From the NCBI GenBank assembly GCA_037129555.1, contig JBAXUS010000005.1, positions 7,086 to 71,085 on the forward strand: DNA of 64,000 nt, written 5' to 3'. The stretch comes from Planctomycetota bacterium. Lineage in GTDB: Bacteria > Planctomycetota > SZUA-567 > H5-PLA8. This document shows positions 37,774 to 40,380 of this stretch, piece by piece. The notes beneath the pieces are model-generated. The model was not told the DNA's origin. It saw only the letters and a program-made list of their open reading frames with translations, and made no database searches. The translations under genes were made by a program, and so were the position numbers. How positions within the stretch are numbered: the first letter of the stretch is position 1; the number at the start of each line of letters is the position of its first letter.

Positions 37774-38141
37774 GTAGAGCGCCCTTTCTTCCAGTACGTT
37801 TGAAGATGCCTATCAGGCATCGGTCTCGCTTCGCATAACGATCATCGGTCATTTTGAGCTTCGCCCGATACTCAATTCGGGAGAAAGCTGACGACACGTT
37901 GATGCGATAGCTATGTGACCCAAGTATTATCGGCCATTCGCACTGGGGGCTTCATAAAAATCTTCGCCTCATTTTAAGAGTTCTAATCGGCGCGCGAGAA
38001 TTCACCGAAAAGAAGAGTACACTCCGTAGTCTACCTCACGACGTGCACGTGTCTATCAAGTTGGCGAGGAAAAGTTGAGCGGAACTATGCACATGCGCTT
38101 TCGCAGGGTCGGAAGATTATGTGTACGCTTTGGCAGGGTGC

Positions 38142-38245
38142 CTTGGAGCAGTACTCTGCTCCAAGCCGTTAGGCGCGAGAGTAATTGAGGGAGAAGATTG
38201 TTTCAAGTGAGCGCGCAAAGGCACGGAGCAGGGTACTGCTCCGTG
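38142..38245. repeat. Two copies of a GGAGCAG-N4-CTGCTCC hairpin motif (10-bp stems) downstream of hisS
   Basis: 38142-38165 CTTGGAGCAG-tact-CTGCTCCAAG; 38222-38245 CACGGAGCAG-ggta-CTGCTCCGTG. A third copy at 45398-45415 is the exact reverse complement of the first 18-mer. Confidence 0.7.
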
Positions 38246-38262
38246 GCACCCGGCCGTCGCTC

Positions 38263-40131
38263 CTATAAAAGGCGCGCGAGTGTTTGCTCGAAGGTCAGTT
38301 CGTCCTGGGATTTTGCGTTGAGGTCTTTGAGCATCAGGGTGCCTTTGGCGATTTCGTTGGCTCCGAGAATGGCGGCGAATGGGATGCCTTTTTTGCTTGC
38401 GGCTGAGAGTTGCTTGTCGATCTTTGGTTTCTTCTCGTTGTCTAAAAGCATTTCGGATGCGATGCCGGCAGCGCGTAATTTTCCGAGCAGCGTGAGTGCC
38501 GGAAGGATGCCTTCGGCGTCCATCGGGACGACGCAGACGCGGCTGGTCGCGCCGCATTTTTTCACGACTTTCAATTCAGACAGCCCGGCGAAGAGGCGGT
38601 CGATGCCGACGCTGATGCCGACGGCGGGCGTGGGCTTGCCGGAGTAGCGCGCGATCAGGCCGTCGTAACGTCCGCCCGACATGACACTGCCGAAGCCGGG
38701 GAGGTCGGTGAGGAATGTTTCATACACGGTACCCGTGTAATAATCGAGTCCGCGCGCGATGGAGAAATCGAGGATTGGCGTTGGCTCGGGCAGAAGTAAA
38801 TGCGATTGAGACGAATTTTTTGTGTCGTCTTCAATAGGAATTGCGGGCCTGCGTCCACCCGTCTGCGCATCAACATATTTCTTAACTTCGCGTAATTCGG
38901 AGACGGCTTCGTCGCCGACGCTGCCGACGAGCGCGCTGAATTGGGCGATCATGTCGTCAAAATTACCGGCGATGTCGACGAAGCGGATGATGGTTTCGAT
39001 TTGTTCAGCGTTGCATTTGGCATCGGTGTCGAGAAGTTCGCGGACGCGTTGCTTGCCCTGGGACGGAAGTTTGTCGATAGTGCGGAAGATCGCCATCATC
39101 TGGCGTTCGTCGGCGACGTTGAGTTTCTGTCCGAGCGCGGAGAGGACTTTGCGGTTGTTGAAGCGGACTTCGGCCTTGACGCCGAGTTCCTGCATGACGG
39201 CGAAATCGAGCGCGATGCACTCGGCGTCGTACATTAAGGAGGCAGAGCCGACGATGTCGCAATCACATTGGAAGAATTCGCGGAAGCGGCCTCGTCCGGG
39301 ATTTTCAGCGCGCCAGACGGGGGCGACTTGATAGCGCTTGAAGGGCTTTTGCAGGTCTGCGTATTGAGCAGCGACGCGCGCGAGCGGGACGGTTAAATCG
39401 TAGCGTAAACAGACATCGCGGCCGCCGTTGTCGCGGAAGCGGAAGAGCAGCTTTTCGGCATCGCCGCCGAGTTTTCCGAGGAGGATGTCGGTGTATTCGA
39501 GCGCGGGCGTTTGCAGCGGCGCGAAGCCGAAACGCTCGAAGACGCGCGTGATGGCTCCGATCATGGCTTGGCGCGGCAGCATGTCTTCGGGGAGATAATC
39601 GCGGAAGCCTTTGAGCGTGCGCGGTTCGATGACAGCTCCACCGGATTTCTTGGCTGATTCAAAATCGAGCAGTTGAAGGGACGCGCCGAGGAAGGCTTTG
39701 AGGTCGTCGGCGGCGACGAGGGTTTCGAGAAGCGGGTCTCCACTGGAGACGGCGATGTTTTCGGAATCAAAGACGCGACCATCGGCGACGACGGGGAACT
39801 TTTTTTCAGGTGCGTTGAACGGTGTCACAGCGTTCATTGGCGCGGCGAAATCGGCTTCGAGTTTTTCCTGCGGATAGTAATCGGCGTCCTGGCCGAGCAA
39901 CTTCGACAGTGTTTTGAGATCGAGACGCTCGGGGGCTTGAAGCAGCAGCACGAAGGGTGCACCAGTGGCTTTGAGTTGCATGGCGAGCGCTTTGACGCAG
40001 TGTTCGGGCGCGATGTTGAATGCCTTTGCGAGTACATCAGCACGCTCGCGTGGATTCGTCGGGGCAGCGTTTAGCTTATGCTCAGTCAGTTGAAAACCAC
40101 TGGTTGTAAAACTTGATTGAAAACTAAGCAT
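38263..40131 (-). CDS. hisS: Histidine--tRNA ligase with a ~170-aa N-terminal YbaK/ProX-like extension
   Basis: Class II aaRS motifs 1-3 (…RYDLTVPLARVAAQ…RYQVAPVWRAENPGRGRFREFFQCDCDIVG…, …GGRYDGLIARYSG…) and an anticodon-binding domain. The usual N-terminus (…KGFRDYLPED…) is preceded by ~170 aa that resemble YbaK/ProX deacylases. Confidence 0.8.
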   Translation of the reverse strand: MLSFQSSFTTSGFQLTEHKLNAAPTNPRERADVLAKAFNIAPEHCVKALAMQLKATGAPFVLLLQAPERLDLKTLSKLLGQDADYYPQEKLEADFAAPMNAVTPFNAPEKKFPVVADGRVFDSENIAVSSGDPLLETLVAADDLKAFLGASLQLLDFESAKKSGGAVIEPRTLKGFRDYLPEDMLPRQAMIGAITRVFERFGFAPLQTPALEYTDILLGKLGGDAEKLLFRFRDNGGRDVCLRYDLTVPLARVAAQYADLQKPFKRYQVAPVWRAENPGRGRFREFFQCDCDIVGSASLMYDAECIALDFAVMQELGVKAEVRFNNRKVLSALGQKLNVADERQMMAIFRTIDKLPSQGKQRVRELLDTDAKCNAEQIETIIRFVDIAGNFDDMIAQFSALVGSVGDEAVSELREVKKYVDAQTGGRRPAIPIEDDTKNSSQSHLLLPEPTPILDFSIARGLDYYTGTVYETFLTDLPGFGSVMSGGRYDGLIARYSGKPTPAVGISVGIDRLFAGLSELKVVKKCGATSRVCVVPMDAEGILPALTLLGKLRAAGIASEMLLDNEKKPKIDKQLSAASKKGIPFAAILGANEIAKGTLMLKDLNAKSQDELTFEQTLARLL

Positions 40132-40312
40132 TTCGATACCTTGGTTGGTCTGAGAATTTAAAATGATTCGGCGTGTAAATCCGCGCGCAAATTTTATGTC
40201 GCCCTTTCAGGGCTTGGATTTCTATGGGCGACGGACCTAGGGCTGCGCGAGTACGCTTAGCCCTAGGCTATATCATGCCGCCCCATTCGGGGCTGAAAAA
40301 TCGGGGCTGAAA

Positions 40313-40380
40313 AACAACATCAATCCTTTCGGGGCATAAAACAACATCAACCCTTTAAGAACTTATAACAATATCAACCC
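40313..40380. repeat. Three direct copies of a 14-mer AACAA(C/T)ATCAA(C/T)CC at an exact 27-bp period in the hisS upstream region
   Basis: Copies start at 40313, 40340 and 40367. Preceded by a GGGGCTGAAAAA tandem (40289-40314) and a 9-bp-stem palindrome CCTAGGGCT…AGCCCTAGG (40236-40267). Confidence 0.7.

Follow-up and report, generated by a model that had tools for sequence, protein, structure and literature searches.

According to a 2024 review, the INS superfamily consists of the INS domain of prolyl-tRNA synthetase (ProRS) and eight families of trans-acting factors, all of which apart from INS are single-domain proteins; the synthetase fusions described are limited to ProXp-ala joined to ProRS, and plant ProXp-ala has an extra C-terminal domain (PMC11295145). 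The characterised members of the superfamily all use a conserved Lys together with a GXXXP loop (PMC11286415), and the N-terminal INS-type domains found on ProRS are active Ala-tRNAPro deacylases (PMC11286415; PMC11295145). In this study, we analysed the gene for histidyl-tRNA synthetase (HisRS), hisS, in a 64,000-nt stretch of DNA (hereafter the window) from a Planctomycetota bacterium (GenBank assembly GCA_037129555.1, contig JBAXUS010000005.1, positions 7,086 to 71,085), the product of which carries a YbaK-like domain of this superfamily at its N-terminus. HisRS is not known to proofread. A first-pass annotation of the window, made from the letters of the DNA, had expected such a fusion to be unusual, and no description of HisRS linked with a YbaK or INS domain was found in the full-text literature searched. 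The sequences are already public, with a precomputed Pfam architecture of PF04073 + PF13393 + PF03129 displayed, and what is new here is the recognition and interpretation of the fusion rather than the sequence.

The fusion is encoded on the minus strand by a single open reading frame (ORF) of 622 aa with an ATG start, and its product is 100% identical to a GenBank protein from a metagenome-assembled genome (MAG), P0001 in our set, which is annotated merely as 'histidine--tRNA ligase [Planctomycetota bacterium]'. It is a genuine, conserved polypeptide in which an INS-superfamily domain and a HisRS, both complete, are connected by a short flexible linker, with the following layout.

38263..40131, minus strand: complete coding sequence of the YbaK-like/HisRS fusion (622 aa plus stop); from the ORF list of the window and the identity to P0001
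39652..40131, minus strand: N-terminal INS-superfamily (YbaK-like) domain, residues 1-160; from Pfam PF04073, the family profile, Foldseek and the predicted local distance difference test (pLDDT)
39616..39651, minus strand: inter-domain linker of 12 residues, 161-172 (KKSGGAVIEPRT); from low pLDDT
38593..39615, minus strand: HisRS class IIa catalytic domain including the insertion domain, residues 173-513; from Pfam and NCBIfam
38269..38538, minus strand: HGTP anticodon-binding domain, residues 532-621; from Pfam PF03129
39991..39993, minus strand: codon of Lys47, the counterpart of the YbaK catalytic Lys46; from HMMER alignments to 2dxa and 1dbu
39820..39834, minus strand: N100-A-V-T-P104, the counterpart of the INS GXXXP loop with Gly replaced by Asn; from alignments and column counts
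38776..38862, minus strand: variable, low-confidence loop of the HisRS insertion domain, residues ~424-452; from pLDDT and alignment

The first-pass annotation had counted ~170 residues ahead of the HisRS K-G-x-R-D motif in the same frame, and this count holds. The HisRS signature L-K-G-F-R-D-Y lies at residues 173-179 (K-G-F-R-D at 174-178) with ~170 residues N-terminal to it, whereas plain HisRS homologues start only 7-19 residues ahead of the motif, and both peptide strings that the annotation had cited are found in the ORF (residues 44-80 and 94-132). It had also considered that translation might start at an internal codon close to the canonical HisRS N-terminus. No in-frame ATG, GTG or TTG occurs between codon 102 (GTG) and codon 184 (ATG), the linker included, and codon 184 is already past the invariant KGFRD motif; thus, no internal canonical start yields an intact plain HisRS. 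Homologues share the N-terminus of the fusion from its first residue onwards (MxxFExxFTxKGF...), and the nearest in-frame upstream stop lies 26 codons before the ATG. The full-length AlphaFold2 model has a mean pLDDT of 92.1 and a predicted template modelling score of 0.79, with the N-domain at 92-98 (86 when it is modelled alone) and residues 161-180, the linker region, at 67-71, the lowest values outside the insertion loop.

That the extension belongs with the YbaK/ProX-type deacylases had been proposed by eye, and both profile searches and the predicted fold bear this out. Pfam tRNA_edit (PF04073) matches residues 29-144 of the whole protein (E=3e-14, 53.5 bits) and the extension alone (E=1e-14, 55.1 bits) against a gathering cutoff of 25.5 bits, and the match spans 116 of the 123 model positions; judged by its profile scores, it is far above chance level. 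A family profile (A2) built from 32 N-domains of the fusion family and searched against the PDB matched YbaK of E. coli and H. influenzae (E ~3e-11), ProXp-x (2CX5; E=1e-9, more exactly 1.2e-9), APE2540 (E=4e-7), the INS domain of ProRS (E=2e-5), as well as two HDOD proteins, SadB (9QZK; E=5e-6) and Maqu_0641 (3MEM; E=3.5e-3), by way of their YbaK-like N-domains. The match to ProXp-ala (5VXB, 1VJF) was confined to the C-terminal half, at E=0.04-0.05 and ~17 bits. When the N-domain model was compared with the PDB by Foldseek, all 37 matches at E<=1e-3 had the YbaK fold, being INS-superfamily members (including designed scaffolds on 2cx5) and the same two HDOD-protein N-domains. Template modelling (TM) scores to free-standing INS members were 0.75-0.86, and 0.75-0.81 to 2cx5, 1vjf, 1dbu, 2dxa and 1wdv; no INS subfamily was clearly ahead, and the similarity to the ProXp-ala fold is generic to the superfamily.

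Assignment to one named INS subfamily was considered and rejected. With the YbaK equivalog TIGR00011, the N-domain scores 33.0-36.7 bits against a cutoff of 153.25, and with PRK10670 it scores 13 bits against 243; the sequence match to ProXp-ala is insignificant, and in a comparison whose reference sets did not include ProXp-ST1/ST2 and ProXp-7/8/9, YbaK and ProXp-x were about equally near and ProXp-ala distant. By sequence profile and modelled structure, the extension is a complete INS-superfamily (YbaK-like) domain that fits neither YbaK proper nor ProXp-ala. As a separate observation, SadB of P. aeruginosa and Maqu_0641 fit the fusion profile better than ProXp-ala does, with Foldseek query TM scores of 0.67-0.68, and these matches indicate that the YbaK fold has been recruited outside tRNA editing. 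The HDOD proteins resemble the fusion in joining a YbaK-like fold to another domain, presumably for a use other than tRNA editing, but the partner is an HDOD domain, position and context differ, and the comparison is one of fold and sequence only.

Beyond the linker, Pfam tRNA-synt_His matches residues 175-513 (E=1.5e-40), and the NCBIfam model hisS (TIGR00442) gives 365.9 bits against an equivalog cutoff of 286.75 over model positions 2-405 of 406, whereas the HisZ model gives 178 bits, under its cutoff of 272. The anticodon-binding domain HGTP_anticodon (PF03129), which is absent from the HisZ paralogue, matches residues 532-621 (E=1.1e-10, 41.9 bits against a cutoff of 21). Class II motifs 1-3 and the histidine-specific motifs are intact: LKGFRDY, motif 2 (WRAE..GRGRFREFFQCD), RGLDYYTG, SGGRYD and motif 3 (PAVGISVGIDRL) do not vary among 110 homologues, fused and plain, the window protein included. 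Relative to canonical HisRS (TIGR00442, 'REF-x-QCD' type; the plain P0037, P0038 and P0046-P0058), the core is 55-71% identical, and the plain Planctomycetota enzymes have identical catalytic and His-binding motifs and the same anticodon-binding domain; they differ in their start 7-19 residues before LKGFRDY and in having no N-domain. We infer that the HisRS body charges tRNAHis as usual. Within the insertion domain, the loop at 38776-38862 on the minus strand (residues ~424-452, RPAIPIEDDTKNSSQSHLLLPEPTP) is lineage-specific, with a pLDDT of 53-77 (blocks 421-450); it varies in length, and most homologues have a different or much shorter loop here (alignment columns ~520-570). One plain-HisRS Planctomycetota MAG, XB_MAG1214, has two HisRS loci on separate contigs (L048, L068), so duplication does occur in the phylum, which is a caveat to regarding the fused gene as the only HisRS of its genome.

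Among the 120 best HisRS homologues in a collection of 5.8 billion proteins, 44 have the N-domain; these 44 derive from NCBI, JGI, ENA and Logan assemblies, and the members with a named source are Planctomycetota MAGs; closely related plain HisRS also exist. At the DNA level, the full-length fusion is present in at least five GTDB species-representative genomes, all Planctomycetota MAGs, and this number is a lower bound because the locus search patterns (EFFQCDC, KGFRDYLP) are specific to one of the two subgroups described below (group A) and miss the other (group B). Codon comparison with four GTDB loci gave a ratio of non-synonymous to synonymous rates (dN/dS) of ~0.1-0.4 in the N-domain, against 0.1-0.2 in the core, values to be read qualitatively only (omega well below 1), as dS is largely saturated in most pairs. 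Non-synonymous change is 2-3 times faster in the N-domain than in the HisRS core. Codon evidence of this kind indicates that the N-domain is under purifying selection.

In a neighbour-joining (NJ) tree of the HisRS core, computed with no support values, the fusions fall in one Planctomycetota HisRS clade and are interleaved with plain enzymes: P0049 is basal, followed by P0042 with P0039-44 and then by group A, the sister of which is formed by the plain P0037 and P0038. The DNA of the P0037 locus confirms that this HisRS has no extension: ahead of it lie a 216-nt spacer and a gene in divergent orientation. When the N-domains and 60 stand-alone relatives were placed in an NJ tree, group A appeared in 199 of 200 bootstraps, and 87 of the 200 grouped every fused domain together with the stand-alone P0129. 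The simplest reading of these trees would be one old fusion followed by several losses, with independent gains of the N-domain as a possible alternative. An exhaustive search with the N-domain profile gave 1607 matches in 1.84 billion representatives, and the best 150 of the 1607 are of stand-alone size (~150-235 aa) or short fragments except for four long proteins: the fusion representative P0015, P0269, P0237 and P0260. In P0269 (676 aa), an N-terminal YbaK-like domain (TIGR00011 76 bits, G-G-V-P-P-V-G loop kept) is fused to a homologue of argininosuccinate lyase, with an argH score of 302 bits (cutoff 279.5), and P0237 (322 aa) and P0260 (315 aa) have a C-terminal YbaK-like domain after an N-terminal region of ~160-190 residues of unknown type.

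The fusion family divides into two subgroups, group A with 35 sequences including that of the window (59-85% identical overall) and group B with six (46-53% identity), P0042 and P0039 among them. Counts at the active-site columns, taken over these 35 and six fusions and eight stand-alone or reference sequences, are as follows.

Lys aligned with YbaK K46: group A 33/35 (Ser in P0029 and P0031); group B 6/6; stand-alone/reference 8/8
Gly of GXXXP: group A 0/35 (Asn 15, Asp 5, Glu 5, Ser 4, Thr 3, Ala 2, Gln 1); group B 5/6; stand-alone/reference 8/8
Pro of GXXXP: group A 29/35; group B 6/6; stand-alone/reference 7/8
R119 of the D-G-R motif: group A 34/35; group B 6/6; stand-alone/reference 0/8

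The catalytic-type Lys (K47 in the window) is kept in 39 of 41 fusions, and R119 is fusion-specific, being found in 40 of the 41 and in none of the eight other sequences. The first-pass annotation had described the conserved Gly-rich substrate loop as altered, and correctly so: YbaK 'V-G-G-I-S-P-L-G' aligns with 'M-N-A-V-T-P-F-N' of the window, with NAVTP in place of GXXXP and Gly missing throughout group A. Invariant or nearly so in group A only are N26, R28 and R30 (the 'NPRER' motif) and the LD-x-E-S-A-K motif that precedes the linker (D156-x-E158-x-x-K161); S/T103-P104 and S130-G131 are well conserved in this group. The N-domains of the fusions are uniformly acidic, with isoelectric points (pI) of 4.4-5.8, around 5, and a median net charge of -4, whereas the pI of 121 stand-alone relatives has a median of 7.8 and that of the E. 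coli YbaK fragment is ~8.7. Two group A fusions of 626 aa, P0029 and P0031, have Ser at the K47 position ('EQCVSAL'), an enlarged loop after the GXXXP equivalent and no PF04073 flag; their N-domains are candidates for full inactivation.

Compared with the individual described systems, YbaK (a Cys-tRNAPro deacylase; 1DBU/1DBX, 2DXA; TIGR00011) is the best sequence match of solved structure and shares with the fusion domain its fold (TM 0.75-0.82), the correspondence of K46 with K47 and a similar length over the whole domain. Unlike YbaK, the fusion domain has NAVTPFN for GGISPLG and 'SSGDPL' for 'SGGKRG' and stays far under the YbaK equivalog cutoff, and it is acidic and joined to HisRS whereas YbaK is basic, free-standing and associated with ProRS. 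ProXp-x (a deacylase of 2-aminobutyryl (Abu)- and Ala-tRNA; T. thermophilus TTHA1699, 2CX5/2Z0K) is the top Foldseek match (E=2e-11, TM 0.76/0.81, root-mean-square deviation 2.2 Å, 22% identity) but retains G-G-V-P-P-V-G as its loop and acts in trans as a single-domain protein (PMC11295145). The ProRS of lower eukaryotes (Plasmodium, Trypanosoma) has the same layout of N-terminal INS domain, linker, class IIa core and HGTP domain, and its N-terminal ProXp-ala domain actively deacylates Ala-tRNAPro, in cis or as a tethered module (PMC11286415; PMC11295145). It differs from the fusion in being a eukaryotic ProRS and not a HisRS, in belonging to another INS subfamily (E=0.04) and in keeping Lys and GXXXP. 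ThrRS, also a class IIa synthetase with an HGTP domain, carries an N-terminal post-transfer editing module above its catalytic domain, but the fold of that module is unrelated (N2/tRNA_SAD type, not INS), and the domain searches of the fusion protein gave no match to the ThrRS editing domain.

Since the architecture is shared with ThrRS and with protozoan ProRS bearing an N-terminal ProXp-ala domain, we propose, tentatively and at somewhat less than an even chance, that the N-domain is a tethered proofreading domain whose chemistry or specificity has been altered in group A. It would act as a tethered module which receives the 3′ aminoacyl-CCA end of a HisRS-bound tRNA, either in the same subunit or across the dimer. 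As the N-domain is without the basic character of its free-standing relatives, holding the tRNA is probably left to HisRS, and the domain itself would handle only the aminoacyl-CCA end; the acidic composition fits a module that may no longer bind tRNA unaided. The most likely activity would be post-transfer hydrolysis of wrongly acylated tRNAHis, for example tRNAHis carrying a histidine analogue. Subgroup B, which looks ancestral, keeps the full catalytic signature of Lys and GXXXP, and on sequence grounds a proofreading role is fully plausible there. In subgroup A, the loop has been remodelled (Gly to Asn, Asp, Glu, Ser or Thr) and new invariant residues (N26, R28, R30 and R119) have been acquired, which suggests either that chemistry or specificity has changed or that catalysis has been lost with binding kept. 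We think it unlikely that, as a more specific claim, an INS-type domain with a polar residue in place of the GXXXP Gly removes by hydrolysis a histidine analogue, non-cognate or non-proteinogenic, with which tRNAHis has been mischarged.

Several points weigh against proofreading. Group A is without the Gly in 35 of 35 members (the window protein included), without the Pro in six and without the Lys in two. The HisRS pocket motifs are the same in fused and plain relatives and thus give no sign of relaxed amino-acid specificity, and the existence of close HisRS relatives without the domain, such as P0037, indicates that it is dispensable in some lineages. To our knowledge, HisRS is not known to need editing and is not among the editing synthetases. 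Furthermore, only about half of the synthetases edit (PMC7373986). The first-pass annotation had left a choice between an inactive tRNA-binding appendage and a real editing activity co-opted by HisRS; the evidence gathered here narrows that choice but does not settle it.

The alternative that survives best is that the group A N-domain is a pseudo-deacylase, serving as an acceptor-end binder or chaperone of His-tRNAHis, as a structural or dimer-stabilising element, or as a regulatory module that senses a small molecule; we consider this possible, if doubtful. The losses at Gly, Pro and Lys just listed speak for it, as do the acidic N-domain, the apparent repeated loss of the domain in sister lineages and the subgroup-specific invariant N26, R28 and R30, which suggest a new binding surface, and non-editing uses of the fold do exist in the HDOD proteins SadB (9qzk) and Maqu_0641 (3mem). 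Against it stand the retention of Lys47 in 33 of the 35 sequences, the good conservation of S/T103-P104 and S130-G131, a dN/dS well below 1 and the complete motif in group B. In YbaK and other INS proteins, it is through backbone atoms that the loop forms the oxyanion hole, so the loss of the Gly is not proof of lost catalysis.

It is also conceivable, but improbable in our view, that the domain is an ordinary trans-editing factor, acting for example on Cys-, Ala-, Abu-, Ser- or Thr-tRNAs that come from other synthetases, which was fused to HisRS for co-expression and has no link with tRNAHis. Its nearest solved relatives are indeed YbaK, the Cys-tRNAPro deacylase, and ProXp-x, YbaK and ProXp-ST1 are broad in tRNA specificity (PMC11295145), and YbaK-like domains are elsewhere joined to unrelated enzymes, P0269 being one example. 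However, at 33-37 bits it stays far below the cutoff of the YbaK equivalog (153), and E=0.04 does not place it in ProXp-ala. The lost positive charge, together with the fusion-specific R119 and with NPRER, speaks for an adaptation of the domain to HisRS. The closest stand-alone relative, P0129, clusters on the same strand with a HisRS paralogue, which hints, albeit in a single case, that the tie to enzymes of the HisRS type is no accident. An artefact, whether from a wrongly called start or from a chimera of a ybaK-like gene and hisS produced by assembly or frameshift, is effectively refuted: all sequences come from metagenome assemblies and some entries are incomplete (P0009, P0035, P0126-P0128), but the frame is continuous in 44 protein clusters (NCBI, JGI, ENA, Logan) and in the DNA of five independent GTDB genomes, the junction has neither a stop nor a canonical start, the linker motif is conserved and the N-domain is under purifying selection.

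A conserved and selected INS-HisRS fusion would point either to an unrecognised fidelity problem at histidine codons, caused for example by environmental histidine analogues, or to a natural case of an editing fold turned into a non-catalytic module for tRNA-end binding or regulation. If the domain with the altered loop does hydrolyse such mischarged tRNAHis, the reading that we think unlikely, this would be the first HisRS with built-in post-transfer proofreading, HisRS would join the editing synthetases, and the INS superfamily would gain a new specificity class. The coexistence of a subgroup with Lys and GXXXP and a subgroup in which the Gly is replaced offers a natural experiment on the need for the GXXXP loop. 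These are single-chain bacterial enzymes with confident models, and the question is open to direct expression and deacylation assays.

P0129, the closest stand-alone relative of the fused domain (107 bits), is encoded on a 14.5-kb contig (L083, Logan SRR24075711) that also carries, ~2.4 kb upstream of P0129 and in the same orientation, the gene for a divergent HisRS paralogue. This paralogue has 444 aa, is 32% identical to the window protein, scores 254 bits against the hisS cutoff of 287 and has 'ISGFNDY' for LKGFRDY. The cluster reads as follows.

258-6420 of L083, all on one strand, in order: HisRS paralogue, 273-aa unknown protein, 483-aa S-adenosylmethionine (SAM) methyltransferase, P0129, 263-aa unknown protein, receiver-like protein

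From its gene content, this cluster is possibly a dedicated aminoacyl-tRNA-dependent pathway, and the neighbourhood hints at a recurrent link of HisRS-type enzymes with the YbaK-like lineage. No close homologues of P0129 were found in the database, where it is a singleton, and hisS is not nearby for three other stand-alone relatives; thus, the association with HisRS stays a single anecdote.

In the window itself, accA (423 bits, equivalog) lies upstream of hisS on the same strand, and downstream is a gene for a 782-aa tetratricopeptide repeat (TPR) protein; a cupredoxin-like protein is divergently encoded. Among the related loci, the accA-hisS order is common only to the closest relative, L003, and the context therefore gives no functional clue. 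tRNAHis genes, sought for an unusual G-1 or discriminator base, are absent from the 64-kb window and the fusion loci, and neither the window nor the related loci yielded any other tRNA gene. The DNA on either side of hisS also holds an RNA match, direct repeats and a palindrome, all of which are irrelevant to the fusion. The Rfam family Acido-Lenti-1 (RF01687) matches 40236-40294 on the plus strand with 40.1 bits against a gathering cutoff of 37, over the full model (1-46), and a weaker partial copy lies at 40191-40213 on the same strand; the match, which is the only one at gathering level in the 64-kb window, falls in the 321-nt accA-hisS spacer on the strand opposite both genes and has no counterpart at the related loci L003 and L004. 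The same spacer has short direct repeats at ~40283-40380, where CC(A/T)TTCGGGGC(T/A)(G/T)AAAA occurs three times and AAAACAACATCAA(T/C)CC is part of two units of 27 nt; on the hisS strand, this reads as GGTTGATRTTGTT three times, spaced by 27 nt. The repeats may represent operator or promoter elements, or else repeat units in decay. Just past the hisS stop (38263), an imperfect palindrome of 124 nt (38132-38255) has 45-nt arms that are 80% complementary and holds two perfect 10-bp hairpins (38142-38165 and 38222-38245). Its sub-threshold Rfam match to the plant miRNA MIR898 (41.9 bits against 75) is certainly spurious, and the palindrome may be a terminator or an element like the repetitive extragenic palindromic (REP) sequences.

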